A DNA stretch of 38,151 nucleotides from Limisphaerales bacterium (GCA_003133815.1 PKZR01000281.1:1-38151); one strand, 5' to 3'. Positions 16,911-37,790 are shown, counted from the first letter of the stretch. A program made the numbers and translations. Notes: generated by a model not told the origin, from the letters alone.

Positions 16911-17975
16911 TTATCGTTTGGCTCTTTTCAATTTTCTTACTTCCTTCAATTTCTTTCTTAAGGCGGTAATGTCTATTGTCAGCGCAGTATCGCCGCCGTC
17001 GCCAATGGCGGCGAACGTGAAATCCTCTTCTGGATAGAAGGTCATCTTTGCCTCGTCTCCTTTTACTTCGGCAAACAACTCATAGGCATCTTCATTGTCC
17101 TGTTCGAAATCGGGATACGTAATGAATGTGACATATTTTCCACGAAGCGGCTGGCTGTTATTGATACGCTTAAAAACGGCCTGCACTTCACCGTTGCGAC
17201 TAATTGTGGCCTCAAGCCTTCTTTCTCCATTGTCATCGATCAATCCAAAAAGCTCTATGTTGGGGTCATCAATCTCGTAGTCATGGATTTCAGGACGATC
17301 CACTTGCGGAATGCGAAAACGCACATGTAAATCTGGAAAGAACTGACAGAGTAAACGGCTGGGGATACACCATGAAACATTATCGTTGGCCAACTCCGTG
17401 ACCACCAATCCCACAAACGCGTTCACATCCGATGACCACACTGGCGCACCACTGAATCCACCCAGCACTGAGAGGGCACCGCCCCGATCCATCTGCACCA
17501 AACCGATTGCGTCCGTAGCATGGAGAAATCCGGCAGCGTTCCGTCCTTGCTGATCTCCGCCCGGAAAACCAAGCACCGAATAAGACTTGCCTCCGTGACG
17601 CAACGGATTCGCGAATTCTACGGGCTTTACGGACAATAATGGTCCGTCCACAATTAAAAGCAACGCGAGATCATTTTCCGGCCCGTCGCCCCCCACCACC
17701 AACACTTCGGCTGTCACTGTTGGCCGGCCTTCCACACCCACCAATGTCAGGAACACCTCTGGGTCACGGACATCATTGCGTGCTGCTTCCACCACATGAC
17801 GACAGGTCAACACATAACTGTTGTCTATCAAACAACCAGCCCCTACTATTTCCCCGGACTCGCGGTGCACGGCAACCACCCGCGCTGTTTCTTGATCTCC
17901 AATTCGCAGTCCCAAGCCCACGGTCTGTGGTGTAATCTGGTTCGGCATGTTATTGATTTTGCTGGATGATTTCAT
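16911..17975 (-). CDS. trypsin-like serine protease with a C-terminal beta-rich domain (tentatively pYEATS-like)
   Basis: ATG at 17975 directly abuts the stop of the upstream gene. His motif VLTCRHVV, Asp motif NDLALLLI, Ser motif GFSGAPVW. The C-terminal ~140 aa (YVTFITYPDF...FTFAAIGDGGDTALTIDI) is followed by a Lys-rich tail. Confidence 0.8.
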   Translation of the reverse strand: MKSSSKINNMPNQITPQTVGLGLRIGDQETARVVAVHRESGEIVGAGCLIDNSYVLTCRHVVEAARNDVRDPEVFLTLVGVEGRPTVTAEVLVVGGDGPENDLALLLIVDGPLLSVKPVEFANPLRHGGKSYSVLGFPGGDQQGRNAAGFLHATDAIGLVQMDRGGALSVLGGFSGAPVWSSDVNAFVGLVVTELANDNVSWCIPSRLLCQFFPDLHVRFRIPQVDRPEIHDYEIDDPNIELFGLIDDNGERRLEATISRNGEVQAVFKRINNSQPLRGKYVTFITYPDFEQDNEDAYELFAEVKGDEAKMTFYPEEDFTFAAIGDGGDTALTIDITALRKKLKEVRKLKRAKR

Positions 17976-18359
17976 TCATTTCTTATCTTTTGCCCATTTG
18001 AGTGTGACGGTGAAGTTAGCCTTGGCTTCACCTTTAGTGACCAATGGGATTCCCATTTCGCCACCCAGCTCAACACCAAATTCAATCTCCACTTCATCAG
18101 GCTGCACTGCCTTCAGAGAATTAAGAACGCTTTCCGCGACAGCGGCCACTGATTTGAATTCATGCTCTAGATCAAGTTTTTTGGCCAAATCGCGAAAAGA
18201 CGCGGCATTACGCGGCACGTTGCCGCCGCCGTCAATACATTCCACGGCAATCGTAATTGGCTCACCGTTACTATCCTTGCTGGGCAACTTATAAATCGCC
18301 CGGTTAGTTCTGGTGTTGGGGGTTTGGTTTTTGAAGAATTGCGGTGCTTTCTTTGGCAT
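17976..18359 (-). CDS. Trypco2 (trypsin-co-occurring domain 2 / CU044_2847-like) protein
   Basis: The track start 18371 is TTG; ATG at 18359. The C-terminus PDEVEIEFGVELGGEMGIPLVTKGEAKANFTVTLKW matches, from memory, the Trypco2 signature (..EVEFG..L....G.....GGEANF.V.L.W). Confidence 0.65.
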   Translation of the reverse strand: MPKKAPQFFKNQTPNTRTNRAIYKLPSKDSNGEPITIAVECIDGGGNVPRNAASFRDLAKKLDLEHEFKSVAAVAESVLNSLKAVQPDEVEIEFGVELGGEMGIPLVTKGEAKANFTVTLKWAKDKK

Positions 18360-18418
18360 ATGTTTATACAATTTTGTTATAAAGACTTATCAAGTTAAAT
18401 TTTGTTTCTACCTTTAGA

Positions 18419-20074
18419 TTAGAGTTTCAGTAACTTGTCCAATTGCGGTTTGATGAGAGCCAGGTCAATCGCCTCGCGCACGGCTCCGCCAATCAACCAA
18501 GGGTTGACACCAATTTCCTGTAGTATTGTATGAGCACGATCACGCAACCGGTCGCGGACGGCAATCCGCGTATCGCGATCCATCTGTTCAAGCTTCAAGC
18601 CGTTGAGCGATGTGTCAATGTTGCGTATCGGCTCAGGTGCATAGTTAATGGGGCCTAGTTTGCCTGGATTTGTAAGGAAATCCTGTGCTTTCCTGCGGCC
18701 AATATCATAATCGTGATCGCGATAGCGACGGTCAAAAAAGCCGGCAAAGGCAAACAATTCCGAACTGGCCAGTTCGGAATCATTGGCGGTAATCCCGTAA
18801 ATGGTCATCTCGTCACGGGTGCCCAGTTGCGCGGCAGTTTCCAATGTTAGAAGGGTGTCAACAAAACTATCGGCCGTGGGCTTTCCTTTGTTTTGTAACA
18901 GCCCGTTGTATTCTGTTAAGAACTGGTCGTGAACACGTTTCCATGCCGAAGCCTGCGTCTCGTCCGGATTGCTTGAAAAGAGAAGCGGCAGCAACGCAGT
19001 AGTTCCAGGTTGAATTTTGGCTACATCGAGTGTTCCATTGAGTAACATCTTATAAAGTTCGTCTGCCCTTTGATTAAATAGCGCAACCTTTGCGTTAACG
19101 TCTTCGGCCATGATCCAGTCCTGAAAGCGCGCTTGTCCGAAGATGGAACTGACCAAGCGGACAGCCATTTCGCTGTAATCTGCTTTGCTCGCATTGAAAT
19201 CAGCATTGGCCGTGGAACTTTTCTCGCCGGGTGCAACGAATAGATAAAAACGGTTTTCCACATCCAGATGCTGGTCAATCTGATCAACCAGGTTCTTCGC
19301 CAAACCGAGTGGTTCGTTTTGGAACGTACCGCCATCGGTATAGGCGAATTTTTGTGTAGGCAGGATTTTTGAGGCGAGGTCGGGGTCGGTATATTCACTG
19401 GCGTGACGAATGACATCAATTACACGAAACGCAAATGCGAAGGCACCACAGGAAACACAAGCATTGCGGAGTGGCTCCCAAAACTCTTCAACGTCATCAA
19501 CATTGGGTTTATCAGATTCAATCCAAGTCACCAGTTCATCCTGGTGACGAGTGTAAATGAATTTGTCCTGTGTGCCATCAGGGCGTTTGGGCAACAGCGG
19601 CAGGCCATAATCAACGCCATTCAAATTTGAGAGAGCCAGCCCGAGTCGAAGCAATTTGGCGGATGCCGGATGTTGCTTGGGCTGAAGTTCTATGTGACTT
19701 TGATAACGTTGTGTGAGATAACGCACGGAAATATCTTCGACGAGTTGCGAGGAAAAAATGGACTTGGTTGCATCATCGTCGCCGTGCATTGTCAGCAGGC
19801 CATCAATGCTGATGTCGGCAACCCAAGGACGATAAAAACAATTATCATAACTCCCGGTAAGCGCATCGGCTTCAAATGCAAGTTTTTGTGCGGCGATTGT
19901 CGCCGTCATCCCTCCTGCGGACGCACCAGTGAGAACATCAATTTCAATCCTCGTGGCTGGATTGGCAGTTGCGTTGTGCTTTCCGATGGCATAAATGATT
20001 TCGTAAAGCACACCGGCTTCGTAGCTACCGAGCGAAACGGCACCGGATATCGTAATTGCAAGGCGTTTGGACAT
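18419..20074 (-). CDS. patatin-like phospholipase
   Basis: ATG at 20074. Oxyanion region ITISGAVSLGSYEAG, nucleophile elbow GASAGG (GxSxG), catalytic Asp in YTDGG. Confidence 0.9.
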   Translation of the reverse strand: MSKRLAITISGAVSLGSYEAGVLYEIIYAIGKHNATANPATRIEIDVLTGASAGGMTATIAAQKLAFEADALTGSYDNCFYRPWVADISIDGLLTMHGDDDATKSIFSSQLVEDISVRYLTQRYQSHIELQPKQHPASAKLLRLGLALSNLNGVDYGLPLLPKRPDGTQDKFIYTRHQDELVTWIESDKPNVDDVEEFWEPLRNACVSCGAFAFAFRVIDVIRHASEYTDPDLASKILPTQKFAYTDGGTFQNEPLGLAKNLVDQIDQHLDVENRFYLFVAPGEKSSTANADFNASKADYSEMAVRLVSSIFGQARFQDWIMAEDVNAKVALFNQRADELYKMLLNGTLDVAKIQPGTTALLPLLFSSNPDETQASAWKRVHDQFLTEYNGLLQNKGKPTADSFVDTLLTLETAAQLGTRDEMTIYGITANDSELASSELFAFAGFFDRRYRDHDYDIGRRKAQDFLTNPGKLGPINYAPEPIRNIDTSLNGLKLEQMDRDTRIAVRDRLRDRAHTILQEIGVNPWLIGGAVREAIDLALIKPQLDKLLKL

Positions 20075-24722: not shown

Positions 24723-26540
24723 TTACCAGTTGAATGCAAATTGGACTAAATCTTTGATTTCAGCTTTCAGCGGATCTTCGCTTTCAACGATTTCTTTTAC
24801 ACGCTTCCAGATTCTATAGGGCTTATCACCGGAAGACTTTGGACGTTCCTCCCAAAACAAGTCTTCGAGAGTGTCGTCAATAACGCGAATGTTAGCAGGT
24901 TCCACAAATTGCGCGATTCGCGCATTCGCATTGTATGGATCAATTGGAATAGCCTCAGCAAGTTCCGCATCTGTGCGTCCTTTCTTGTCTCGGTCATGGA
25001 TTATTCGGAACGGAATCTCAAATTGTTTAAGCAAATTAGCTATAGGAGCAATTGTCCATTTTCCACCGCAGGAAACGACCGTGCAAAGAGATCGTTTTGC
25101 CATATCGACTTCGGCCTTGGCATAAAGCTCTTGCTGGTGAACCAGCAACGCCATTTCAGAATCACCTTCCACAAGCACGGTCCGTTTAGCAAAGAATGCT
25201 TCACAAACGGTGGGATGGAAGTCCAGAACAGCTCGCAGAGCTTCCCGATCTCGTTTCGATTCCACATCTTGGCCGAATGGGTCAACCTTGAGTTGGGAAA
25301 CCGTGGGAGGCGTTTTTGAATTTTCTCTTTTGAACACCGCGAGAGATAAAGGATCTGATCCAATATCAATTAAAAATGGCGAATGGGTGCTAACGATGAC
25401 TTGCCAATCCAGTTTCTGCGAAATTGCATGAAGGGCAGTCTTCAGCCTTCGCATGATATGTGGATGCAAGAAAAGTTCCGGTTCTTCAAAGAGGATGATT
25501 GTGCTTCGGGAGTGCAGTAAAACATTGGCCTCGTCCGTTATTTGAGCATTTTGTGCCGCCAGAACTTCCATCAACGCAAATATTAATGCCCGCTGCAAAC
25601 CGTTCCCCTGCAATTCAATTGAGGTTTTTGTTCCATCATCAAGGGCTATGCCGGTATTTGCGCCAATAAATTTTTCTGCATTTGGTGTTTCCATCGTCAG
25701 GAGCACCTTGGCATCAATTGTTGATGAAAGCCGTTCCGATATGAGCCTCGTGACTTCCCCAACTTTTTGAATTTGTTGTTCACCTTCAGCCGCAAGTTTA
25801 ACTTGAAGGTTTTCAACGGCCGTCATCAGGGTTAAATATTCTTCCGAAGTTTGAACCGCCGGAAGGATAATTTTGTTCAGGATCAAACCGAACGAGGTCT
25901 TGGCACCCGGTTTGCTATCTTCGCTCGCATTTCTAACAGCCGGAATTATCTGGGCTTGAGGAATGGCCTGCTGAAGAGCAGCATCAATGCTTATATTTTC
26001 ACCGGACCACTTTGGTTCACTCTGCGTAATTAATTCGGGTTTTGTTTCACGTATGCGTTGTCTGACCTGTTCCTGTTTTGCAGTGGGTTTCCATGTAGTT
26101 TGGTTCGTTATACCCAATTCTCCGGCGACGGCCTGAATTTCGGCATTTAGAGTGGCCCATTTATCCGACCAGCCGGCAATCACTTCCTCTGGTTTGAATG
26201 CCTCATACACTTTTTTTATTTTTTCAGTCTCGGCTTCGATAAAAAACCGGACGCGTAAGCGAATTTTGTCTGCATGAACAACTCCAGCTACGCCGGGTGT
26301 GGCTTTTTCCCATTCCTGTAAATCACCAAATTCACCTTCAATGATCATTTCCTTATCTTTATGCCCCTTGCGCCATTCCTCAATGCTTGGCGATTGTTGG
26401 TTCAAAAAGATTTCAATGGCGCGTAATACTGAAGATTTGCCACAATTATTCGGTCCAATAAAACTGGTAAAACCCCTGATATTGATAGTTGTGTCTTCAA
26501 TGCATCGAATGTTTTTTACTGTGATTGATTTTAATTTCAT
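24723..26540 (-). CDS. OLD-family ATP-dependent nuclease (ABC-type ATPase + C-terminal Toprim)
   Basis: ATG at 26540. MKLKSITVKNIRCI...FIGPNNCGKSS (Walker A), ILFEEPELFLHP (Walker B / D-loop region), Toprim TVLVEGDSEMALL and IIHDRDKKG. Confidence 0.85.
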   Translation of the reverse strand: MKLKSITVKNIRCIEDTTINIRGFTSFIGPNNCGKSSVLRAIEIFLNQQSPSIEEWRKGHKDKEMIIEGEFGDLQEWEKATPGVAGVVHADKIRLRVRFFIEAETEKIKKVYEAFKPEEVIAGWSDKWATLNAEIQAVAGELGITNQTTWKPTAKQEQVRQRIRETKPELITQSEPKWSGENISIDAALQQAIPQAQIIPAVRNASEDSKPGAKTSFGLILNKIILPAVQTSEEYLTLMTAVENLQVKLAAEGEQQIQKVGEVTRLISERLSSTIDAKVLLTMETPNAEKFIGANTGIALDDGTKTSIELQGNGLQRALIFALMEVLAAQNAQITDEANVLLHSRSTIILFEEPELFLHPHIMRRLKTALHAISQKLDWQVIVSTHSPFLIDIGSDPLSLAVFKRENSKTPPTVSQLKVDPFGQDVESKRDREALRAVLDFHPTVCEAFFAKRTVLVEGDSEMALLVHQQELYAKAEVDMAKRSLCTVVSCGGKWTIAPIANLLKQFEIPFRIIHDRDKKGRTDAELAEAIPIDPYNANARIAQFVEPANIRVIDDTLEDLFWEERPKSSGDKPYRIWKRVKEIVESEDPLKAEIKDLVQFAFNW

Positions 26541-26698: not shown

Positions 26699-27667
26699 AT
26701 GACCAAGGGAAATCATCTGCAATTGTTTGACCAGGCCCATTTGAAAGCTCGGTTTAGTCCTGCTGGCGTTCATTTGTTTGACCGAGCGACCGGAATGAAT
26801 GTTCTTCTCGACGAGATTCGAGTGCCTTCAGTTATGTGGACGAACGCTCCGCGACAAGTTTCAATTGCGTTGACGAATGCGTGTGATCTTTCCTGTTCCT
26901 ACTGCTTTGCGCCAAAGAATCATGCAGTGCTTGATTTTGAAATGATTATCAGTTGGCTTGACGAACTGGATGCAAACGGCTGTTTTGGCATCGGCTTTGG
27001 AGGTGGAGAACCAACGCTTTATCCACGTCTGGCGGAACTGTGCCAATACGCAGCGGAGAACACGCGACTAGCTGTAACTTTTACTACTCATGCACACCAC
27101 CTTGACGAATCGCTTGTTTCCGCTTTGGCCAGTAACGTGCATTTTGTAAGAATTAGCATGGATGGTGTTGGTGCCACATATGAGGCACTCCGTGGACGGT
27201 CGTTTGCGGTGCTTCGCCAAAAACTAACTGTCATGCAGCAATTGTCGCCATTCGGAATCAATTTCGTTGTAAATTCACGCACTTTTCTTGATTTGGATGC
27301 AGCGACTGCGTTAGCTGCCGAGGTTGGTGCATCCGAATTTCTATTATTGCCTGAACAGCCCGTTCGCGGTGCTGGCGGCATTGATAGTTGCACGGCTCAA
27401 GAATTACACTTATGGGTCGCACAATATCGCGGCAAAGTTCGTCTTACAGTAAGCGAAGCAGGTGCTGACGGACTACCTACTTGCAATCCACTTGATAAAG
27501 AAACTGGACTTTGTGCTTACGTGCACATTGATGCGTCTGGCATCTTAAAACATTCTTCTTATGAGAATGATGGTGTGGCTATCGGCGATGGCGGGGTAAT
27601 GCAAGCGATAAATGAATTGCAAACTTTTAGAAGGAGGAACAACAATGAAAATCTGGCACGGTTATAG
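26699..27667 (+). CDS. radical SAM enzyme (not viperin-type)
   Basis: ATG at 26699. CDLSCSYC (CX3CX2C, nt 26882-26905), GFGGGEPTLY SAM-binding motif, and three further Cys residues near the C-terminus. Confidence 0.85.
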   Translation: MTKGNHLQLFDQAHLKARFSPAGVHLFDRATGMNVLLDEIRVPSVMWTNAPRQVSIALTNACDLSCSYCFAPKNHAVLDFEMIISWLDELDANGCFGIGFGGGEPTLYPRLAELCQYAAENTRLAVTFTTHAHHLDESLVSALASNVHFVRISMDGVGATYEALRGRSFAVLRQKLTVMQQLSPFGINFVVNSRTFLDLDAATALAAEVGASEFLLLPEQPVRGAGGIDSCTAQELHLWVAQYRGKVRLTVSEAGADGLPTCNPLDKETGLCAYVHIDASGILKHSSYENDGVAIGDGGVMQAINELQTFRRRNNNENLARL

Positions 27668-28040
27668 TTCAGAACACTCACACAATATCGTAATGATCGG
27701 TCGCTTCAAAACTGCGGCTGATGCAAAAGATGCAGACGCCGCAATCAGTCAAATCAGCGATCGGGTGCGCAATGAAGGTGACGCTAATCGTGAAGCGGAG
27801 CGTTATAGCCAAGCGTTGGTTGACCTCTTGTCAAAATTGAAAATCCACACTATCACACCCGGTGAGCTTGAGCAATTTACTTATGATGTTCATGTTGATC
27901 TTAAGAATGACCGAATAGAATTATGGACTGACGAAGGGGTGGTAACGGCGTTCTTGAAGGTGCTTGTTGATTCGGGCGCTCGTGTTGAGGTCTATTCTGC
28001 GCACGATTATCCTGAAACGGAGGAAAAGAAAGACAAATGA
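27645..28040 (+). CDS. hypothetical small acidic protein (131 aa)
   Basis: AAGGAGG at 27631-27637 lies 7 nt upstream of the ATG at 27645; the track start 27612 is also an ATG but lacks an RBS. It overlaps the end of the radical SAM gene by 23 nt and ends 21 nt before the STAND gene. Confidence 0.6.
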   Translation: MKIWHGYSSEHSHNIVMIGRFKTAADAKDADAAISQISDRVRNEGDANREAERYSQALVDLLSKLKIHTITPGELEQFTYDVHVDLKNDRIELWTDEGVVTAFLKVLVDSGARVEVYSAHDYPETEEKKDK

Positions 28041-28061: not shown

Positions 28062-31000
28062 ATGCCATCCGTAAATTGGAATGTATTTGAGCAGTTGCCC
28101 GGTAGCGCAGAGAATAACTTTGAAATGTTGTGTCGAGCGCTTATACGCCGACATTACGGGGGCCATGGTCAATTTGCAGCGCTTGCAAATCAACCGGGGG
28201 TAGAGTTTCACTTAAAATTGCATACCGCCTGCGCCCTTGGCAAACCTAACCGCTGGTTTGGTTGGCAGTGTCGCTGGTATGGAACTTTGCCAAGCGGCAC
28301 GTCACTTGGGCAAGCGCGCCGAGATAAAATTGAAAAGTCGCTATCAACAACCGTAAAGGTGTTGCCTGACTTGACTGACTGGGTATTGTGGACACGACAT
28401 CCACTCACTGCGGGCGATCAAAAATGGTTCTATGGCCTTAAGGCAAAGATGCACCTAAAAATGCGTCTCGATCTTTGGACCAAGGCGGATGTCGAAGACC
28501 TTCTTAATGGTGAAGCTGAAATTTTTAGGAGCACCTACTTTGGCGATTTAATTCTTTCACCCAATGCTTTGTCAACCCTACATGGGACATGGGTTGCGCG
28601 TGTTAAAAAGCGTTGGTTGCCTGAAGCCCACCAAGTCGTCGAAGCCGAAAGAACGTTAAGACGAATGCTTGGGGAAACCCAATCGTGGGAACAGTTGGTG
28701 AACGTTGCTGATCGGCTGTTAGCCGCTACCAAATCCATCAATGCTGACATAGATAAATTGACAGGTCCGCTTGCCACGACAACCAAAGAATTCGTTGAAT
28801 ACGTTCAGCTTTTTGCCACATCATTAAATGAAGCACACAAACTGCTTGGCAAGGGCGACCTTGACCTTCTCCGACAGCAGCTTGAAGCCCGTGTCAATAT
28901 GCCTACCGCAAAGCTGACAACTGCCTTACGCAAATTGCGGGCAGCCCGGCAGCGTGCAGCGCTGATTGCCACAAATACACTTGCTGACCTGCGTTTAGGT
29001 CACAAGCTTCTTGATGAGGTCAATAGTTTTCTTGGAACACGACTTGTTGGTGTTCTGGCGGACGCTGGAGGTGGCAAGACCCAGCTTGCGGCACAATTAA
29101 CAGCCCCATCGTCTGATAGACCTGCCGGAATTTTGATTTATGGCCAAGACCTCCACGCGGGTCACGATCTCGATGAACTAGCTCGTAAAGTGACGTTGCC
29201 GGGAACTGGAACGCCTATTTCCAACATGGAGGCTCTTGTCGCGGCACTGGACGCCGCCGGACAACGTGCCCACCGACGACTTCCAATCATAATTGACGGC
29301 CTAAACGAGGCTGAAGATCCACGAAATTGGAAAGGTCCACTCGCTTCACTTAATGAAACCCTTCGCCGCTATCCATACGTCTTGGTTGTATGCACACTAA
29401 GAACTGGAACGCGTCTTCCTACTGAGCAAAACGAGTGGCAACCTGCTCCCGAAGTGTGCACTCGAAGAACGGCTTTCGCTGATGAAGCATTGCCGGAGGG
29501 AATTCAACACTTGGAAATGTCTGAATTTGGCGGAGATACGACGGAAGCCATCAGGCGATACTTTCAATATTATAAAATCAATTCTGGCGACGTAGAATTG
29601 CCGCTTTTGCTTAGCCATCCATTAACTCTCCGTTTGTTCTGTGAAGTAACCGACCCAAAGCGTGAGAAAGAAGTGGGTATCGAAGCGATGCCTGGGTCGC
29701 TTACTGCTATATTTGAAAGTTATTTAGGAAAGGCGGCTGAACGTATTGCAGAACTCGCACCACTCAGTCGTAGATATTACGAACTGGACGTGCAAAGGGC
29801 ATTCGACGAAATCGGAACAAGTCTTTGGGATCGCCGCGCACGCACCGTTAGCGAACGTGACTTGCGAAAAACATTAGGTGACGAAACTCGGCCATGGAAT
29901 GAGAGCATTGTTCGTGCATTGGAGCAAGAAGGCGTCATTCTACGATTGCCGGGAATTGCTCCGGGTGACATAGATGTAATGGCTGTTTACGATGCCATGG
30001 GAGGTCATCTTGCGGCAAAGGCAATTTTAATGCGTCACGGTGGGAATGCATTTGAACAATGGTTGAAAAATCCGACGACGCTTGCAGCTTTGTCTGAACC
30101 TCCATCCGGTCGGTTCCGTCCCACTGTGCAGCCACGAACGCTTGAGCCGTCGCCCATTGAATTATCACCTGCCCACCCACTAGCCACTGATATTTTTCGA
30201 GCTTTAGTGGGGCTTGTTCCCCGGCACCTTAATCGGCAACAATTGTGGCCGTTGCTCGATGAACCGCTACGAACCCTCGCTCTTTTAAGAGCATCCCGTT
30301 TGGAAGGTGCATACCTCGATAATGCAACCGTTCAGGCACTCTTCATGCTCGCGTCCGAATCAAGCAAATTGTTTCCCCGATTGCATCAAACACGCGGTGC
30401 CGTAGCGCACCCTCTTAATGCCAATTTTTTGGATTCGGTTTTGCGTCCGATGAAGGTGGCGCAACGCGACCTTATCTGGACCGAGTGGATTCGACGGAAT
30501 CGGGAGATTTTTCTCGACAGATTACACGATTTGGAACAACGATGGCGCCGTGTGCCGACGACACGAACATCTTCAGATCAACTTACAGCACGGTGGGTCA
30601 TGTGGATGCTTACAAGCACAATTCGGGAGCTTCGTGATAAGGCGACTCGCACTCTATATTGGTTTGGTCGTGGAGATTCGACAACGCTGTTTGAGCTGAC
30701 CTATGAATCGCTGGCAATAAATGATCCATATATTCCAGAACGTATGATGGCTGCAAGTTATGGAGTAGCAATGGCACGACACGTTGATTTAACAGGCAAA
30801 AATTTTGTAAAAAAAATATTGCCAGTTTGCGCAAAACGTATTTATGAGTTGATTTTTAAGGAAAATGCACCTCACAGCAATACCCACGTTTTGATGAGAG
30901 AATATGCAAGAAGAATATTGGAACTTGCATCATTTCATCATCGTAAAAATTTTTCAGCGGTGGAGACGGCCAGAACAATGCCACCATATAAAGATGGTGG

Positions 31001-32408
31001 TCTACGCGAGTGGCCAGAAAGCAAAACTGGCAAAGATGAATTCTACGGCCAAAACTCTCCATTCCGTATGGATTTTGAGAATTATACGTTAGGTCGACTC
31101 GTTCCAGGCCGTGGAAATTATGACTCAAAAAATCCGGAGTATCGGAAGATCAGAGCGCAAGTGCTGTGGCGGGTTGAGCAGCTTGGTTGGTCTGTCGAGC
31201 TTTTCAAAGAAATAGACCAACAGATTGCAAACGATCTGCGCTATCCGCACGGACGATCATCCGACGAAAATAAGAAAACTGACCGATATGGAAAGAAGTA
31301 TTCATGGATAGCCTATTTTGAAATGGCTGGGCTATTGCGAGATCAGGGCAAAATAGGCAAAGACTATGAAGATGACGATAGGCCAAGCGATATTGCAATT
31401 GACCCGAGTTTTCCGTTACCGCTTCCGAAAGAGAGACTTATTTCAGGCGATTTTCTGGGCAGTCCAAAATTATCACTGAAAGATTGGATAGCGAATGGTG
31501 GTGTGCCAAACGTGTCTCCATACCTTAAAATGTCGGAGGTTCAGAATCAACCGGGGCCGTGGATTGCGCTTGATGGTTTTTTTACGCAGGAAGATGCAAG
31601 ACGCGGGCGAAGAACATTCTGTTTTATTCGCAGTTTTTTGGTAGAGCAGCCAGACGCCAATTCGTTTTTTAAGCATCTATCGCAGCAAAATCTTGGTGGC
31701 CGATGGCTGCCTGACAATCCAAGAGTCATATACACTTTCGCAGGGGAAATCCCGTGGTGTAAAATCTATCCAAAATATGGATTTAGGAAGTTCCATTTTG
31801 TGGTTGCTGAAAAAAAAGTGAAAATAAAACGAAAGAGGCCAGCTTGTTTTTTAGACGGGAAGCAGATTCAATTAACGCGGTTCGACCTTCATCGTATGGC
31901 AAATATGCCCATCATGTTCAGTGCCGATGAGAAAACAGGTCTTTCACCAGAAGAAATTGAACGCGTAGAACTGCGCAATATCATTGTCGAGGAAGAAGAG
32001 ATTCAGAGGCAAACCAACTCATTCAAGGCGTTGATTCCAGTTTGTGACTTCGGATGGGAAGGCAAAAATTTTGAGAATGAATCTATTCATGCGACCGTCT
32101 TGGCCAAAGAGATTGCTAATAGTCTTCAATTAGTCGGACAACCGCAAACATTTGACTCATTTACGAAAGATGGCGTGAGAGCAACATTCGGAGTTGCAGA
32201 ACGGAGCAATTACAACAACAGTCAGAGCTTGTTCTTGATACGGGAAGATTTGTTAAAGGGTTATCTTAAAAATAAGAAGTTGTCACTTGTTTGGGCAATA
32301 TGGGGAGAACGTGAATACGCAACGGATCTTATCAATAAATGGAATGATAGCAAGCGGCCTAAAATACCCTATAAAGTATACCAAACGATAAAACAATTCA
32401 AAGCGTAA
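28062..32408 (+). CDS. 1448-aa STAND (NACHT-like) NTPase with an N-terminal Mrr-like PD-(D/E)xK-type domain and a long uncharacterised C-terminal region
   Basis: ATG at 28062. N-terminal FEMLCRALI...QPGVEFHLKL...WFGWQCRWY resembles Mrr_cat (FE..., GiD, QcK) but with QCR. Walker A ADAGGGKT (nt 29061-29081). Walker B LPIIIDGLNEAED (about nt 29280-29318). Confidence 0.8.
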   Translation: MPSVNWNVFEQLPGSAENNFEMLCRALIRRHYGGHGQFAALANQPGVEFHLKLHTACALGKPNRWFGWQCRWYGTLPSGTSLGQARRDKIEKSLSTTVKVLPDLTDWVLWTRHPLTAGDQKWFYGLKAKMHLKMRLDLWTKADVEDLLNGEAEIFRSTYFGDLILSPNALSTLHGTWVARVKKRWLPEAHQVVEAERTLRRMLGETQSWEQLVNVADRLLAATKSINADIDKLTGPLATTTKEFVEYVQLFATSLNEAHKLLGKGDLDLLRQQLEARVNMPTAKLTTALRKLRAARQRAALIATNTLADLRLGHKLLDEVNSFLGTRLVGVLADAGGGKTQLAAQLTAPSSDRPAGILIYGQDLHAGHDLDELARKVTLPGTGTPISNMEALVAALDAAGQRAHRRLPIIIDGLNEAEDPRNWKGPLASLNETLRRYPYVLVVCTLRTGTRLPTEQNEWQPAPEVCTRRTAFADEALPEGIQHLEMSEFGGDTTEAIRRYFQYYKINSGDVELPLLLSHPLTLRLFCEVTDPKREKEVGIEAMPGSLTAIFESYLGKAAERIAELAPLSRRYYELDVQRAFDEIGTSLWDRRARTVSERDLRKTLGDETRPWNESIVRALEQEGVILRLPGIAPGDIDVMAVYDAMGGHLAAKAILMRHGGNAFEQWLKNPTTLAALSEPPSGRFRPTVQPRTLEPSPIELSPAHPLATDIFRALVGLVPRHLNRQQLWPLLDEPLRTLALLRASRLEGAYLDNATVQALFMLASESSKLFPRLHQTRGAVAHPLNANFLDSVLRPMKVAQRDLIWTEWIRRNREIFLDRLHDLEQRWRRVPTTRTSSDQLTARWVMWMLTSTIRELRDKATRTLYWFGRGDSTTLFELTYESLAINDPYIPERMMAASYGVAMARHVDLTGKNFVKKILPVCAKRIYELIFKENAPHSNTHVLMREYARRILELASFHHRKNFSAVETARTMPPYKDGGLREWPESKTGKDEFYGQNSPFRMDFENYTLGRLVPGRGNYDSKNPEYRKIRAQVLWRVEQLGWSVELFKEIDQQIANDLRYPHGRSSDENKKTDRYGKKYSWIAYFEMAGLLRDQGKIGKDYEDDDRPSDIAIDPSFPLPLPKERLISGDFLGSPKLSLKDWIANGGVPNVSPYLKMSEVQNQPGPWIALDGFFTQEDARRGRRTFCFIRSFLVEQPDANSFFKHLSQQNLGGRWLPDNPRVIYTFAGEIPWCKIYPKYGFRKFHFVVAEKKVKIKRKRPACFLDGKQIQLTRFDLHRMANMPIMFSADEKTGLSPEEIERVELRNIIVEEEEIQRQTNSFKALIPVCDFGWEGKNFENESIHATVLAKEIANSLQLVGQPQTFDSFTKDGVRATFGVAERSNYNNSQSLFLIREDLLKGYLKNKKLSLVWAIWGEREYATDLINKWNDSKRPKIPYKVYQTIKQFKA

Positions 32409-33046: not shown

Positions 33047-34387
33047 ATGACACGGGGACTTTGGGAGTGGCGACTGGTTTTGGAACCTGACGAACCAAAC
33101 ATAGTGATCGGAAATCGTGACGGCTACGGAAAGCCGTTGCCTTTTGGCATATCTGCCAGCGACCAGCGGCAGCATATTTACATCATCGGAAAAACAGGAT
33201 CAGGAAAGACGACATTGCTCCGCAACCTGATTTTGCAGCACATCAAACTTGGACATGGCATTGGACTGATTGATCCGCACGGGGACTTGGCCGAAGAATT
33301 GTTACATCACATTCCGCCCAAGCGGGCTGACCACTTGGTATATTTTAATCCGGGTGACATTGAATTTCCAATCGGGCTTAACTTGCTCGCAAATGTCGCG
33401 CCGGATGACCGGCATCTTGTGGCATCCGGCATCGTGGGCGCGTTCAAGGGCATCTGGCGGGATTCATGGGGGCCGAGGCTTGAATATATCCTCTACAATG
33501 CGGTGTCAGCCCTTTTGGACTGCCGGAACGCAACCCTTTTGGGCGTCAACCGGATGCTCACGGATGACACATACCGGGCCAAAGTGGTCCGGCAGATCAA
33601 AGACCCATTCATCAAGGCGTTTTGGGCGGAGGAATATGCCAGATATGACGAACGGTTCAAACGCGAGGCCATCGCGCCCATTCAAAACAAGCTCGGCCAG
33701 TTTCTTTTGAACCCGGTGATCCGAAACATTTTGGGTCAAGTGAAGAACAAAGTGAGCATCCCATTTGTCATGGACAACCAGAGGCTGTTCATCGCCAACC
33801 TGTCGAAAGGCAGGCTTGGACACGACAAAGCGAATTTGCTTGGATCATTGCTGACAACGCAATTCCAGCTTGGCGCAATGGCGCGGGCGAACCGGCCAGA
33901 GGAAGAACGAAAAGATTTTTACCTATTCATTGACGAGTTCCAGAACTTTTCAACCAACGCGTTCGCGTCCATTCTCGCGGAAGCCCGAAAATATCGCTCA
34001 TGTCTGACGTTATCGCACCAATACATTGACCAGCTTCCGCTTCCGATCCGGCAAGCGGTATTCGGCAATGCAGGGACATTGATTTCCTTTCGCATCGGCA
34101 ATACCGATGCCGAAGTGATGGAAAAGGAATTCGGCAATACATTCCCGGCGAGTGTTCTGGTTGACCTTGACCGATATGAGGCGGCGGTGAAATTGCTGGA
34201 CGATGGAATGAATCGGGAACCGTTTCGGGCGAAGATGCTGCCTCCATTGGAAAACCGCGTTGGCCGGAAGGACAAACTCATCGCCCTATCGCGCGAACGG
34301 TTTGCCGTTCGGCGCGCGAAGATTGATGTAAAATTGAAGCGGTGGATGAATTCAAAGATAACTCCGCTACTGACAGACGAATCGTAA
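33047..34387 (+). CDS. TM-less TraD/VirD4-like (T4SS DNA-binding domain, FtsK/HerA-superfamily) P-loop ATPase
   Basis: ATG at 33047. Walker A IIGKTGSGKTTLL, DPHGDL, Walker B FYLFIDEFQNF, SHQYIDQL. Confidence 0.75.
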   Translation: MTRGLWEWRLVLEPDEPNIVIGNRDGYGKPLPFGISASDQRQHIYIIGKTGSGKTTLLRNLILQHIKLGHGIGLIDPHGDLAEELLHHIPPKRADHLVYFNPGDIEFPIGLNLLANVAPDDRHLVASGIVGAFKGIWRDSWGPRLEYILYNAVSALLDCRNATLLGVNRMLTDDTYRAKVVRQIKDPFIKAFWAEEYARYDERFKREAIAPIQNKLGQFLLNPVIRNILGQVKNKVSIPFVMDNQRLFIANLSKGRLGHDKANLLGSLLTTQFQLGAMARANRPEEERKDFYLFIDEFQNFSTNAFASILAEARKYRSCLTLSHQYIDQLPLPIRQAVFGNAGTLISFRIGNTDAEVMEKEFGNTFPASVLVDLDRYEAAVKLLDDGMNREPFRAKMLPPLENRVGRKDKLIALSRERFAVRRAKIDVKLKRWMNSKITPLLTDES

Positions 34388-34398
34388 TATCCATCATA

Positions 34399-35343
34399 TT
34401 AAAATTGTTGCTCATTTCCAAATTCCACAAAATCAGAAGCGCGGTGATAATGATCGAGACTGATGATTCCTGGACCCTCAACAAACATTTTTGCATAGCC
34501 AGAGCAAATACCCATTTTAAGAATTTCCAGTGATGTTTTATTTTGGGCAATGCCCAAAGCAAAAGCCCCTACCATTGCATCACCGCAGCCTATTACATCA
34601 AGATCGCCTTGCTCGTGTAGATTTGTTTTGGCTTGAACGTAATGTCTTTTTTCACGGTCAATCCATAAGGCTCCATTTTGACCCAATGACACCACCACAA
34701 TGTTGCTTTTTATCAGATTTGATGCCGTAGTCACGATCTCATCTATGTTGACAAGGTTTCTTCCAGCCAGCCTGGAAAGCTCTTCCAGATTAGGTTTTAC
34801 GAGCCTCACATTTTTACAGTCAATTTTACTTAACAAGGGAGGGTCAACATCCAGCAGAATAATTCCTTTGCGCTCGGAAATCAGGCGCACAAGCTTGTCC
34901 AAGTAGTCAGGTGGAGTTCCTATTGGAATGCTTCCCGACACAACAATCACGTCTCCTTCATTTATACTTGGATAAAGCGCCTTTTCAAGCTCATTTAGAT
35001 TTGATTCCGTGACATGATAGCCTTGGTTTTGGACATGACATATCAATTCAGCGTTCTTATTTACCAATGTGATGTTTTTTCGTGTCACCCCTTCACAGGC
35101 TATGACATGAGCCTTTATTTGAGGAGATATGGACGAAAACGAGTGAACTTCATTGGCTCCGCTAAAGCAATACAAGCCCACTTCTCCTCCTAAAGAAGCG
35201 ATGGCGCGCGAATTATTGACAGCCTTGCCAGCCAAATACTCCCTATAACCTTCAGAGCGGATAATCGCTCCAAGAGTAAATTGAGGTATTCTTATTCGGA
35301 TGTCTATGGCTGTATTTAATGATATTGCGTGAATGTTTCTCAT
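34399..35343 (-). CDS. PfkB-family carbohydrate kinase, 1-phosphofructokinase/tagatose-6-P kinase (FruK/LacC)-like
   Basis: The ATG at 35343 overlaps the stop of the TIR gene (ATGA at 35340-35343). SLNTAIDIRI, LAGKAVNNSRAIASLGG, KPNLEELSRL, VSLGQNGALW, DVIGCGDAMVGAFALG. Confidence 0.85.
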   Translation of the reverse strand: MRNIHAISLNTAIDIRIRIPQFTLGAIIRSEGYREYLAGKAVNNSRAIASLGGEVGLYCFSGANEVHSFSSISPQIKAHVIACEGVTRKNITLVNKNAELICHVQNQGYHVTESNLNELEKALYPSINEGDVIVVSGSIPIGTPPDYLDKLVRLISERKGIILLDVDPPLLSKIDCKNVRLVKPNLEELSRLAGRNLVNIDEIVTTASNLIKSNIVVVSLGQNGALWIDREKRHYVQAKTNLHEQGDLDVIGCGDAMVGAFALGIAQNKTSLEILKMGICSGYAKMFVEGPGIISLDHYHRASDFVEFGNEQQF

Positions 35344-36677
35344 TTTGCGATTTGAATCTTATCCTTCGCCTTTTCGACCAGCTCCATGTAACGCGAATCT
35401 GTCCCACCATCATTGGTAATCAGTATAACATCGTCCTGAAATGTCCCAAAACACACTTCTTCAACAATGCCGATTTTTGAAATGTCACCGAGAATGAGCT
35501 TCTTCCTGCCGTTCTTCATGAGGCTCAATTTGTTTTTGGTTTCGGCGTTGCTATGGGTGGTAAAACCTTTTTCAAAATGAATACCATTAACTCCTATAAT
35601 CGAAAAATCTACACCGCCTAGCTGGTCGAAAATATTTTGAAGCTGAACGGATTCTTGACCTTGCTCTTCAATCACGGCAAGGGTGTTGGGGCGGACTCTG
35701 CCACCACCCAAGTATAACTTAAAACCACTATTTTCGTCATCGAACCCCAGTCGGGTTCCTGTTTCCAAAAAAATGTTCGCTGCACTGATTGAAGTTGTGA
35801 CAATTGAGATGTTAAAGAGGGATTTGTTTGCAAGGCGCGTGCAAAGAATTTTCGCCAGTTCGTCAGTTGTAGAACCGGCGTCTAAAGCAATTTTGTGACC
35901 AGATCGAATGTGTTGTGCGGCGACTTTTGCTATTTTTCGCTTCGCCTCGGCGGATATTTTGCCTTTCCATTTGTAATGCTCCTCTCGGACATAAAGCTCG
36001 AAACCATCATAAACAAGACCCGGAATTAAATCATTTTGAATGATCTTGCGCATCAATGTTTCAAAATCATTGGAGTTATAGTCCGGTGACTTTGATTTTA
36101 GAATGGCGTGCAGTTCGTCCACTTGCAGCGGTTTTGACTCTCGATACCCAAAGACAACCTGCCTGATTGAGTCTGCAATTTCATTTAACACTTCATCGGT
36201 TCGATCAATAACAGACGCCTTTGTCACGCTTGCCGGGCTTCTGAGCGATTGTATGTCCCTGCAAATCAGTGAAAAAAGTTCTGATGTAATTCGCTTGGAT
36301 AATGCGCGCACCGAATTTTCAGTGTAGTCCTCAAGTTTTAGATATTTTCGTTCCTTGATTATTTCGGGCTTGATATTATTCCATGCTTCTTTATCAACAA
36401 CAATAGGCAGGAGAAAAACCCTGTCCAACTTGCGCTCTTGCTCCAGTGTCCATGAAATCTCTTTCTCTACCCATGGTGAATTCACCGAAAAGGAATCAAT
36501 GAAAAGCAAAATATAGTCGGTTTCCTTTTTTATTGCGTTTTCCAGACTGTGTTCAATTGAATCGCCTATTAGAAGTTTATCTTCATCAATCCATGTATTG
36601 ATATGGTCGGGGAGAATCTTGCGAATTTCGCGAACTAACGGCTTTTGACCGCTGCTATGGCTAAAAAATATTCTCAT
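35340..36677 (-). CDS. TIR domain fused to a DeoR-type module (degenerate wHTH-like linker + DeoR C-terminal sugar-phosphate sensor domain)
   Basis: ATG at 36677. TIR: MRIFFSHSSGQKP...DYILLFIDSFSVNSPWVEKEI, with a candidate catalytic Glu (E73, nt 36459-36461) in the S.W...E. motif. DeoRC: KIALDAGSTTDELAKIL, ISIVTTSISAANIF, LYLGGGRVRPNT, DFSIIGVNGI, KLILGDISKIG, VILITNDG. Confidence 0.8.
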   Translation of the reverse strand: MRIFFSHSSGQKPLVREIRKILPDHINTWIDEDKLLIGDSIEHSLENAIKKETDYILLFIDSFSVNSPWVEKEISWTLEQERKLDRVFLLPIVVDKEAWNNIKPEIIKERKYLKLEDYTENSVRALSKRITSELFSLICRDIQSLRSPASVTKASVIDRTDEVLNEIADSIRQVVFGYRESKPLQVDELHAILKSKSPDYNSNDFETLMRKIIQNDLIPGLVYDGFELYVREEHYKWKGKISAEAKRKIAKVAAQHIRSGHKIALDAGSTTDELAKILCTRLANKSLFNISIVTTSISAANIFLETGTRLGFDDENSGFKLYLGGGRVRPNTLAVIEEQGQESVQLQNIFDQLGGVDFSIIGVNGIHFEKGFTTHSNAETKNKLSLMKNGRKKLILGDISKIGIVEEVCFGTFQDDVILITNDGGTDSRYMELVEKAKDKIQIAK

Positions 36678-36887
36678 AAAATGTTTCCAGTTCCTGATTG
36701 CGACAGCAACAGCGCAACTTTGAGACGCATTGATTATATTGCTTAAAATCTACGTCCCGCAAGAACCAATCAATGTTGTGCCGTGTCTGTAAAATTTATT
36801 CACGGCCTTAAATTACCCTGCAAACTTGCCGCAAACGACAAACCTTGGCGCCTTCATTGACTGCCTGCCATCGTGCAAAATGGCGCG

Positions 36888-37790
36888 ATGGAATCACGCC
36901 TTCCACGATTCAACCGCGCCCCCATCGTTGCATCCATGCAGCTTGAGGAGCGCGACAGCCAGATCATCCGGCTCGTCCACCGGCACCGTTTTCTCCGTTC
37001 CGATCACATTGTTTCCTTCATGGGAGGCAGTCGGCAGCAGATTTTGCGACGATTGAAACTTTTGTATCACCACGGATATTTGGAACGCCCCCGTGCCCAA
37101 ATCCAATACTACGAGCGCGGCGGCTCCCGCAGCATTGCATACGGGTTAGGAAATAAAGGAGGGGTGGTGCTGCGGCAGCTTGGCATCACGGTGGATTCTG
37201 ATTCATGGACCGAAAAGAACCATGTCATCGGTCGGGTATATCTTGAACACGCCTTAATGGTGGCAGACGTGATGGCAGCGGTTGAACTCGCCTGCCGGAA
37301 ACATGGTGGCGTCCGGCTTCTCTACGAAGACGAGCTTGCACTTCCCATGGAACGTCAGCCGTTTGGTTGGCAGGTGAAGATTCAGAATGGTTTGAAACTT
37401 GGCGTCATCCCCGACCGTGTATTTGCATTGGATTTTTCAGATGCAAGTGGTCAAAACCAGCGTGTGCATTTCTTTCTTGAGGCCGACCGGGGAACCATGC
37501 CGGTCACGCGTCATACGCTTTCTCAAACTTCCTTTTTCCGCAAGCTGCTTGCATACGAAGCGACATGGACGCAGAAAATTCACCAGCGGTATCTTGGAAT
37601 CCATCGGTTCCGGGTGCTTGCCGTCACGATCAGTGCGGCACGGGTGAAATCAATTGGGGATGCGTGTTCCCAATTGAAACGCGGACACGGCTTGTTCCTG
37701 TTTGCCGATAAAACCATTTTGACCGGCGACATAATTTCTTCCGTCTGGCAGACCGGCAGGTCGGGGGAAATTGGGAGTCTGTTGGGTTAG
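36888..37790 (+). CDS. replication-relaxation (Replic_Relax) family protein
   Basis: The track start 36873 is GTG; in-frame ATGs lie at 36888 and 36936. LEERDSQIIRLVHRHRFLRSDHIVSF...ILRRLKLLYHHGYLER, ...IPDRVFAL...FFLEADRGTM. Confidence 0.75.
   Translation: MESRLPRFNRAPIVASMQLEERDSQIIRLVHRHRFLRSDHIVSFMGGSRQQILRRLKLLYHHGYLERPRAQIQYYERGGSRSIAYGLGNKGGVVLRQLGITVDSDSWTEKNHVIGRVYLEHALMVADVMAAVELACRKHGGVRLLYEDELALPMERQPFGWQVKIQNGLKLGVIPDRVFALDFSDASGQNQRVHFFLEADRGTMPVTRHTLSQTSFFRKLLAYEATWTQKIHQRYLGIHRFRVLAVTISAARVKSIGDACSQLKRGHGLFLFADKTILTGDIISSVWQTGRSGEIGSLLG

Follow-up and report, generated by a model that had tools for sequence, protein, structure and literature searches.

Organization of the cassette

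The sequence analysed here, referred to below as the window, is a stretch of 38,151 nucleotides from a Limisphaerales bacterium (GCA_003133815.1, PKZR01000281.1:1-38151). Between positions 34,399 and 36,677 its minus strand carries a cassette of two genes, in which a TIR domain fused to a DeoR-type sensor is encoded together with a sugar kinase. The sensor–effector gene (35340..36677, minus strand) specifies a protein of 445 aa, for which open reading frame (ORF) analysis, Pfam searches and AlphaFold2 (AF2) modelling outline four successive parts. The TIR domain, a predicted NADase effector, occupies residues 1-123 (36309..36677, minus strand) and carries an invariant Glu73 in the motif SxWVxKE. 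It is joined to the sensor by a linker of two long helices with a conserved SELFALxCRD motif (residues ~124-176; 36150..36308, minus strand). A divergent DeoR-type winged helix that has lost the canonical TIRRDL recognition motif follows (residues ~177-232; 35982..36149, minus strand), and the protein ends with the DeoRC phosphosugar-binding sensor domain (residues ~233-445; 35343..35981, minus strand), recognized by Pfam, Foldseek and its invariant residues.

The partner enzyme gene (34399..35343, minus strand) encodes a 314-aa PfkB-family kinase of the 1-phosphofructokinase (1-PFK)/hexose-phosphate kinase subfamily. Its start codon overlaps the stop codon of the sensor–effector gene in an ATGA at 35340..35343 on the minus strand (direct reading 'gcaaaATGAgaaac'), as had been noted in a first-pass annotation of the window, which described the two genes as translationally coupled.

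The sensor–effector protein

The domain assignments of the first-pass annotation, a TIR domain with the catalytic-type Glu at the N-terminus and a DeoRC domain at the C-terminus, were both borne out. In Pfam, the window protein matched TIR_2 at residues 3-123 (E=4.7e-16, 59.8 bits, cutoff 28) and DeoRC at residues 243-422 (E=1.8e-23, 83.7 bits, cutoff 31.8), and the DeoRC motifs quoted earlier are real and conserved. The AF2 model of the 445-aa protein, built on 30 homologues (predicted local distance difference test score, pLDDT, 83.7), consists of the TIR domain (1-~118), helices 120-146 and 153-175, a strand-helix-helix-wing unit (177-230) and DeoRC (243-445). Foldseek related the N-terminus of the model to the SPARTA TIR-APAZ structures. 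The C-terminal half matched Escherichia coli DeoR (7l6l; template modelling score 0.81, target-normalised, E=4e-11), followed by many structures of ribose-5-phosphate isomerase A (RpiA), to which DeoRC is homologous.

What the first-pass annotation overlooked is the unit between linker and sensor. Its topology in the model (a strand, helices 186-196 and 202-214, and a wing at 221-230) is that of a winged helix, and when the family profile was compared by hhalign with canonical DeoR regulators, residues 177-439 aligned to their positions 13-243 with a probability of 99.9. The NCBIfam PRK09802 alignment likewise begins at residue 174 of the window protein. Since the hhalign match spans almost the entire regulator, the window protein is therefore a TIR domain fused to an almost complete DeoR regulator rather than to DeoRC alone. 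Pfam HTH_DeoR was not detected in the 445-aa protein, the family alignment and hhalign showed the TIRRDL motif to be absent from the winged helix, and the named DeoR regulator equivalogs (GlpR, AgaR, SrlR, DeoR and others) were not reached, the best NCBIfam score being 62.6 bits against cutoffs of 244-450.

By sequence, using the family profile, the best solved-structure match of the TIR domain was Cat1 (PDB 9mud, E=5.6e-11), and AbTIR and other TIRs were also matched. Glu73 of SPWVEKEI aligns with the WCWDE motif of Cat1. The catalytic Glu known from TIRs that cleave NAD+ is thus present, and NADase activity is predicted. ThsB matches in PADLOC were weak (best E 1.7e-5) and spanned only the TIR part of the protein, and Pfam ThsB_TIR scored 15.5 bits, under its cutoff of 21.2.

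Conservation was assessed in an alignment of 30 family members, whose identity to the window protein is 33-89%. In the TIR domain W29, D31, W69 and E73 (SxWVxKE) are invariant in 30/30 sequences. In the sensor the invariant residues are D266, G268, S269 and T270 of LDAGST, G326, R329 and T332 of GGRxRPNT, G362, N364 and G365 of GVNGI, and D398 and K401 of GDxSK. Four lysines, K238, K246, K383 and K401, are invariant as well. In the DeoR-type FruR of Faecalibacterium, mutagenesis has shown fructose-1-phosphate (F1P) to be bound by K73, K81, K195 and K213 (PMC11906611), and the spacing within the two pairs (8, then 18) is the same in both proteins. From this spacing and the alignment to other DeoR regulators, not from a direct FruR alignment, we infer that the four lysines probably correspond to those that hold F1P in FruR.

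Distribution of the family and conserved pairing with a sugar enzyme

A word-indexed search yielded ~97 clusters (90% identity) of full-length TIR_2+DeoRC proteins of ~445 aa. The loci come from Verrucomicrobiota, Acidobacteriota, Alphaproteobacteria and one bacterium of the candidate phyla radiation; Betaproteobacteria and one metagenome-assembled genome (MAG) labelled as Thaumarchaeota also hold homologues, as assigned by protein name. No full-length homologue was present among PLSDB plasmids or INPHARED phages. Some copies are incomplete. In a Candidatus Liptonbacteria MAG (L004:7890-9339) the HAD hydrolase partner is intact, but two overlapping ORFs of 351 and 143 aa take the place of a continuous TIR-DeoRC gene, owing to either a frameshift in a pseudogene or an assembly error. 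Truncated relatives (L021:1976-2773, L022:148-945; P0106) of 265-306 aa retain the TIR domain and helical linker, with 48% identity across residues 1-222, and have no DeoRC. Either decay of full-length copies or a TIR variant that stands alone could account for them.

Related loci were collected with a 10-sequence alignment, which returned 5 genome and 22 metagenome loci. To tally the pairing, neighbouring ORFs were clustered, and those non-redundant loci were counted in which the sensor gene is complete and followed by at least 800 bp of sequence (n=21). A same-strand sugar enzyme adjoins the sensor gene in every one of the 21. The partner is a PfkB kinase in 8 of these loci, a YihX-like hydrolase of the haloacid dehalogenase (HAD) superfamily in 12, and a set comprising a sulfatase-like protein, a ROK kinase and a class II aldolase in the remaining one (L038). 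The pairing is consequently not peculiar to the genome in which it was first noticed. Among the clustered neighbour ORFs no other gene family adjoins consistently. What defines the partner is thus activity as a sugar or sugar-phosphate enzyme, not membership in PfkB. The PfkB start overlaps the sensor-gene stop in six PfkB loci, five of them non-redundant, by the same 4 nt as in the window at L001, L034, L040 and L041 and by 1 nt at L035; two more contigs break off within the PfkB gene.

The window kinase is a clear member of PfkB in Pfam (E=1.2e-25, 90.9 bits, cutoff 25.8). Its best families are 1-PFK and hexose kinases, in agreement with the FruK/LacC-likeness that had been claimed for it, although its scores of 191.2 bits against TIGR03168 (1-PFK/hexose-kinase subfamily) and 182.6 bits against TIGR03828 (1-phosphofructokinase equivalog) are under the cutoffs of 216.4 and 292. 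The kinases of the relatives at L034 and L035 exceed the subfamily cutoff and fall below the equivalog cutoff. The structures nearest to the partner kinases are Pfk-2, FruK and LacC, enzymes that phosphorylate already phosphorylated sugars, and the motifs N..D, GK..N, TR.N.T, KPN..E and the catalytic G.GD are invariant in 10/10 partner kinases. PADLOC gave no match for the window kinase.

The HAD partners are HAD-IA hydrolases of ~190 aa whose nearest structure is YihX, an alpha-D-glucose-1-phosphatase. They keep the nucleophile Asp as well as the Thr, Lys and DD of motifs II-IV. Motif I reads D-F-[F/Y]-G-V in 15/15 partners (e.g. L009:9409-9993), so that the Asp+2 general acid is replaced by Phe/Tyr; YihX is not known to have an Asp+2 either. 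The HAD partners may have an unusual chemistry, for instance hydrolysis of sugar-1-phosphates or phosphotransfer, or may do no more than bind. Judged by their conserved residues and nearest structures, the kinase and HAD partners both look active on phosphosugars.

A metallophosphoesterase-DeoRC gene has a ROK gene upstream and a sulfatase-like gene downstream, and ROK kinases are also encoded at L016, L038, L039 and on the JGI contig carrying P0207. At L038 (5001-9891) a PNP_UDP_1-DeoRC gene is followed by the genes of the sulfatase-like protein (282 aa), the ROK kinase (327 aa) and, lastly, a 280-aa class II F_bP aldolase. Overlaps occur at the first two junctions, and the arrangement resembles a small sugar-phosphate pathway tied to a nucleosidase-type effector.

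Exchange of effectors on a constant sensor

Residues 125-445, used as the query of an exhaustive HMMER search, retrieved 670 representatives at E<=1e-3, of which 59 reached E<=1e-30. Pfam found DeoRC in all 95 of those examined with it; their N-terminal domain was TIR_2 in 61, Peptidase_C14 (caspase) and SIR2_2 in 3 each, Metallophos in 2 and PNP_UDP_1 in 1. The remaining relatives carry N-terminal transmembrane helices, a helical RNxxxH-type domain or unassigned modules, on which Pfam found nothing significant. A HEPN-like motif (RNxxxH / YRNRxxGHG) in the P0102 and P0171 family and a nitrilase-like motif in P0173 are motif guesses without confirmation by a hidden Markov model; the AF2 model of the P0171 family is poor (pLDDT 60.4), with an all-helical N-domain. 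A second word-indexed search with a mixed alignment mostly returned the known TIR clade and did not recover the SIR2, PNP and Metallophos variants.

The partner enzymes accompany these variants too: the caspase-DeoRC gene is followed by a HAD gene, as is the P0102-type gene, and the P0171-type gene is followed by PfkB. In a neighbour-joining tree of the sensor region, the HAD-linked sensors form one clade that includes TIR, caspase (the caspase-fused sensors are P0100, P0161 and P0212) and unassigned P0102-type effectors. PfkB-linked sensors fall in other clades, and ROK-linked sensors are separate. The partner thus co-varies with the sensor clade, and effectors change inside a clade. Because the clades follow the partner enzyme and not the effector, the sensor–enzyme pair is the conserved core and the effector the exchangeable part. 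By analogy, a constant sensor–enzyme core with an exchangeable effector is a signature of ligand-gated abortive-infection systems, and the exchanged modules are those that CBASS, Thoeris and type III CRISPR employ as effectors.

This exchange bears on two explanations of the cassette. One, raised in the first-pass annotation, is that DeoRC senses a ribose-phosphate product of the TIR domain (ADP-ribose or a derivative) and that the kinase modifies this product, so that the TIR signal is amplified or ended. The homology of DeoRC to RpiA would fit, and TIR, SIR2 and PNP effectors are all expected to release ribose-containing products. However, the same sensor and partner are also fused to caspase, metallophosphoesterase and transmembrane effectors, which yield no ribose product, and the kinases among the partners are of the ketohexose-phosphate subfamily, not ribokinases. 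Sensing of a TIR product is thereby excluded as a general mechanism, with the same sensor found on caspase, SIR2, PNP, metallophosphoesterase and transmembrane modules alike, and we give the explanation hardly any credence.

The second explanation is that the protein is an ordinary DeoR-type transcription factor for the kinase gene, in which the TIR serves as a non-catalytic oligomerization or interaction domain, and that a pair for housekeeping or niche sugar catabolism has come to lie in the island by chance. The full DeoR-like body including the winged helix has been kept, the kinase is nearest to FruK, PfkB and LacC, and homologues bear the JGI annotation 'DeoR/GlpR family transcriptional regulator of sugar metabolism'. 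Against this, the N-terminal swaps to caspase, SIR2, PNP, metallophosphoesterase and transmembrane modules would be senseless for a DNA-binding regulator; the canonical recognition helix has been lost and HTH_DeoR escapes detection; and the TIR Glu and its surrounding motif are invariant across sequences that share no more than 34-45% identity with the window protein. Moreover, no transporter or further catabolic genes adjoin the TIR cassettes, no fructose phosphotransferase system (PTS) genes (fruA/fruB) were found in the window or at any locus examined, and the flanks consist of defence and mobile genes. The possibility that the kinase simply belongs to a fructose PTS operon is not supported by these neighbourhoods, and we regard the metabolic explanation as very unlikely. 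Some members of the wider clade may still be plain regulators, as suggested by P0138 (403 aa), which has a weak GerE/LuxR-type helix-turn-helix (Pfam E=0.019) in place of an effector.

Proposed mode of action

We consider, at slightly better than even confidence, that the two genes constitute a self-contained, horizontally mobile conflict module, most likely serving abortive infection or defence against mobile elements, which arose from a fruR-fruK-type pair and in which the partner enzyme removes the ligand of the sensor. Capture of a fruR-fruK-like pair with a TIR grafted onto it had already been suggested in the first-pass annotation; the alignment over DeoR positions 13-243 and the best families of the kinase agree with it. 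Removal of the ligand by the partner is proposed because kinase and hydrolase would be interchangeable only if both consumed the same sugar monophosphate, and because in canonical DeoR pairs the adjoining enzyme consumes the ligand of the regulator. Thus, FruR binds F1P and not fructose-1,6-bisphosphate, into which FruK converts F1P (PMC11906611), and in Streptococcus mutans the DeoR-type SppR is paired with SppA, a HAD phosphatase that removes F1P and rescues a fruK mutant (bioRxiv 10.1101/342170).

In the resting cell, the 1-PFK-like kinase would turn the sensor ligand, a ketohexose-monophosphate-like compound, into a bisphosphate and so keep it below threshold; in relatives, the YihX-like HAD hydrolase would do the same. 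Infection or another insult would raise the ligand or disable the enzyme, and the ligand would then fill the DeoRC pocket. Its binding would re-arrange the N-terminal part of the protein, and this could release or re-orient the TIR domain. TIR NADases need self-association, and the TIR domains of the oligomer would assemble into an active NADase that depletes NAD+, with the partner enzyme setting the threshold of the trigger. The model for the re-arrangement is FruR itself, whose N-terminal domain is freed from the C-terminal domain upon F1P binding (PMC11906611). In this scheme the identity of the ligand, the direction of the enzyme, oligomerization, NADase activity and the defence phenotype are all inferred.

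The reverse assignment deserves attention: the partner enzyme could be the infection sensor or signal generator, making a phosphosugar that activates the DeoRC-gated effector as CD-NTase does for its effector in CBASS. The kinase would then act on a sugar or sugar phosphate derived from infection, and the ROK or HAD enzymes of other loci would each form a product of their own. That the kinase generates or modifies a ligand of this kind was also entertained in the first-pass annotation. The layout of a coupled enzyme and sensor–effector is that of CBASS, Pycsar and Thoeris, the catalytic motifs of the kinase are intact, the partner co-evolves with the sensor as a synthase would with its receptor, and ROK kinases, which typically phosphorylate free sugars, occur at the four loci named above (L016, L038, L039 and the JGI contig with P0207). 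Nevertheless, a kinase and a HAD hydrolase catalyse opposite chemistry and cannot form a common product from one substrate, yet they replace each other beside homologous sensors, the hydrolase standing in for the kinase in 12 of the 21 loci. In canonical DeoR pairs the enzyme consumes the ligand and the bisphosphate product is not bound. Known synthases, furthermore, stay constant while effectors vary, whereas here the class of the enzyme itself varies. Signal synthesis by the partner is consequently the less parsimonious assignment, and we think it unlikely.

Ligand removal by the partner, our preferred reading, has several observations weighing against it. The window kinase and the kinase at L003 are both under the TIGR03168 cutoff, and for this reason their substrate may not be a fructose phosphate. 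The replacement of Asp+2 by Phe/Tyr in all 15 HAD partners means that these may be poor phosphatases or none, which would weaken the argument that both enzyme classes consume one ligand. ROK kinases are expected to produce a sugar phosphate, and the system may balance production and removal of the ligand, or the enzymes may synthesize the signal. At the SIR2-DeoRC loci no sugar enzyme was visible in the short contigs (416 bp downstream). The winged helix could have kept DNA binding, and the protein with it a part in transcription. Finally, the family is drawn almost only from metagenomes, and its enrichment in defence islands is suggested by about ten neighbourhoods. As a separate observation on the SIR2 variants, SIR2_2-DeoRC (L036:422-2848 and L037) is preceded by a 202-aa multi-pass membrane protein, and this clade may use a different partner.

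Only tentatively, and with less than even confidence, do we go further and suggest that the trigger is a sugar phosphate and not a nucleotide, which would make the cassettes representatives of a new class of immune signalling. A sensor of the DeoR/RpiA fold, taken from catabolic operons, would gate interchangeable suicide effectors, kinases and phosphatases would write or erase the signal, and the cell would in this way monitor central carbon or pentose metabolism for viral takeover. To our knowledge, the well-studied ligand-gated immune effectors of bacteria (CBASS, Pycsar, Thoeris and type III CRISPR) all answer nucleotide-derived messengers through CARF, SAVED, SLOG, STING or Macro domains. 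If the suggestion is true, a class of primary metabolites serves bacteria as an immune cue or a guarded quantity, the cassettes are a clear case of a catabolic regulator/enzyme pair exapted into immunity, and a compact NADase switch of two genes, controllable by a ligand, becomes available. The hypothesis lends itself to direct tests, since candidate ligands, a catalytic Glu, the four lysines of the pocket and two alternative 'eraser' enzymes are all named.

Genomic context of the cassettes

In the window the cassette lies on the opposite strand between a TrwB-like ATPase gene of the type IV coupling protein (T4CP) kind (33047..34387, plus strand; Pfam TrwB_AAD_bind and DUF87), convergent with the kinase gene, and a divergent Replic_Relax gene (36873..37790, plus strand; Pfam E=4.2e-19). 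Pfam thus confirmed both flanks as first described. The promoter of the cassette is presumably located in the intergenic region shared with the Replic_Relax gene (36678..36872), in which no minus-strand promoter-like site was found and a search for operators gave weak 8-9 nt repeats only, none of them convincing.

Genes for T4CP-like proteins, Replic_Relax proteins and serine recombinases recur near cassettes at variable distance and in variable orientation, and the cassette is therefore read as cargo of a family of mobile elements. A TrwB/DUF87-type T4CP-like homologue is encoded within ~7 kb of the cassette in 10 loci, including the window, L003, L009, L013, L016, L029, L030, L032 and L033; we read it as part of a shared mobile-element backbone and not as a member of the operon. 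A Replic_Relax gene also adjoins the cassette in L006 and L013. Elsewhere, the defence and mobile flanks include an MmeI-type restriction-modification gene, SMODS, GmrSD, SLFN_AlbA_2, UvrD-PDDEXK and serine recombinases. The SMODS gene at L034 belongs to a separate, oppositely oriented cluster.

Such surroundings would also suit an addiction module of the toxin–antitoxin (TA) kind that stabilizes the mobile element: the enzyme would act as an 'antitoxin' clearing an endogenous metabolite, loss of the element would remove a labile enzyme and kill the cell, and phage defence would be secondary or absent. Recurrence beside T4CP-like, Replic_Relax and serine-recombinase genes and the two-gene, translationally coupled layout speak for it, and its logic is that of our favoured reading, with the enzyme removing the activator, so that the same biochemistry fits both. 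There is, however, no sign of a lower stability of the enzyme compared with the toxin. The effectors are of the range used in abortive-infection systems, and at many loci the cassettes are co-localized with bona fide defence systems; TA and defence roles can, besides, coexist. We consider stabilization of the element as the principal role quite improbable.

Comparison with known systems

The closest metabolic counterparts are the FruR-FruK pairs of fruRK(A/T) operons in Bacillota. The cassette shares with them the order of regulator and then 1-PFK-family kinase, the spacing of the pocket lysines and homology over almost the whole regulator. It differs by the N-terminal TIR or other effector, the diverged recognition helix, the lack of a PTS gene, a kinase below the 1-phosphofructokinase equivalog cutoff and the location in defence and mobile islands. 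A bona fide fructose operon was rejected as a classification, the scores lying below the equivalog cutoffs and PTS genes being absent. For the HAD-type relatives, the counterpart is SppR-SppA of S. mutans, in which a DeoR sensor is accompanied by a HAD hydrolase removing F1P/F6P (fructose-6-phosphate). SppA is, however, of HAD type IIB (Cof-like), whereas the partners of the relatives are HAD-IA, YihX-like and have Phe/Tyr at Asp+2, and SppR is a plain repressor without an effector domain, unlike the cassette sensor.

Among immune effectors, Cat1 (CRISPR-associated TIR 1), a type III CRISPR effector, is the protein of solved structure that best matches the cassette TIR by sequence. It combines an N-terminal TIR with a C-terminal CARF sensor, and ligand binding drives its assembly and NAD+ cleavage. 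Cat1, TIR-SAVED and ThsA-type effectors follow the same principle as the cassette, a small-molecule sensor fused to a suicide effector. The sensor of Cat1 is a CARF domain for cyclic oligoadenylate, a signal made by Cas10, whereas that of the cassette is DeoRC, and assignment to Cat1-like type III CRISPR effectors was rejected on this ground and for want of a CRISPR locus among the annotated ORFs.

The family shares small-molecule-gated logic, an interchangeable effector repertoire and location in defence islands with Thoeris and with the CBASS and Pycsar effectors that carry SAVED, STING or CARF. The cassette is nevertheless devoid of a cyclase, CD-NTase, ThsA, SLOG or Macro gene; its predicted ligand is a phosphosugar and its associated enzymes are sugar kinases and phosphatases; and compared with Thoeris its TIR is placed as effector and not as producer of the signal. 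Membership in Thoeris was rejected, with no ThsA-type neighbour and ThsB_TIR under cutoff, as was membership in CBASS or Pycsar, with no CD-NTase or pyrimidine cyclase in the cassette. The absence of an adjacent ThsA, SIR2, Macro or SLOG partner, stated in the first-pass annotation, holds. The cassette differs from known ligand-gated abortive-infection systems in sensor fold, predicted ligand class and associated enzymes.

PADLOC v2 has no model for the pair and recognizes the TIR part alone. No description turned up in a literature search that combined TIR or other effectors with DeoR, DeoRC, PfkB or sugar phosphate, many subscription papers being outside its reach; apparent matches went back to authors called 'Deora' or 'Deorowicz', or to a pfkA/B/C kinase-kinase-phosphatase system that is unrelated. 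The cassettes thus apparently represent a widespread and undescribed family, as the initial claim that no system of this architecture had been described would lead one to expect.

Other features of the window

The description of the surroundings as a defence-rich island is also justified. Directly upstream of the T4CP-like gene lies a gene for an Avs2 homologue, a STAND-type antiviral ATPase of 1448 aa (28062-32408, plus strand; PADLOC 372 bits, no Pfam match). It is preceded by a radical-SAM protein gene (26699-27667, plus strand) that matches pVip, the prokaryotic viperin, in PADLOC (65.9 bits). The pVip-like ORF overlaps a DUF6375 ORF (27612-28040, plus strand; Pfam E=4.8e-44), and the two could form a viperin-like pair in which the DUF6375 protein would be an uncharacterized partner. 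An Old/GajA-like nuclease with AAA_15 and TOPRIM domains is encoded at 24723-26540 on the minus strand (PADLOC Old, 257 bits); no GajB-like helicase was recognized beside it, and it is followed on the same strand, down to position 20508, by four ORFs (144, 197, 451 and 428 aa) without Pfam or PADLOC assignment.

A tRNA scan of the window found none, and its annotated ORFs gave no indication of a CRISPR array or of cas genes, no dedicated array search having been made. DUF1559 and N-terminal-methylation proteins, encoded further upstream in the window, suggest a host that is Planctomycete-like. At 16911-20074 on the minus strand, three consecutive genes specify a patatin-like phospholipase of 551 aa, a Trypco1 protein and a Trypsin_2 protease, a combination resembling those reported for NTP-dependent conflict systems. 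The boundary of the island may be marked by a serine recombinase gene at 14350-16041.

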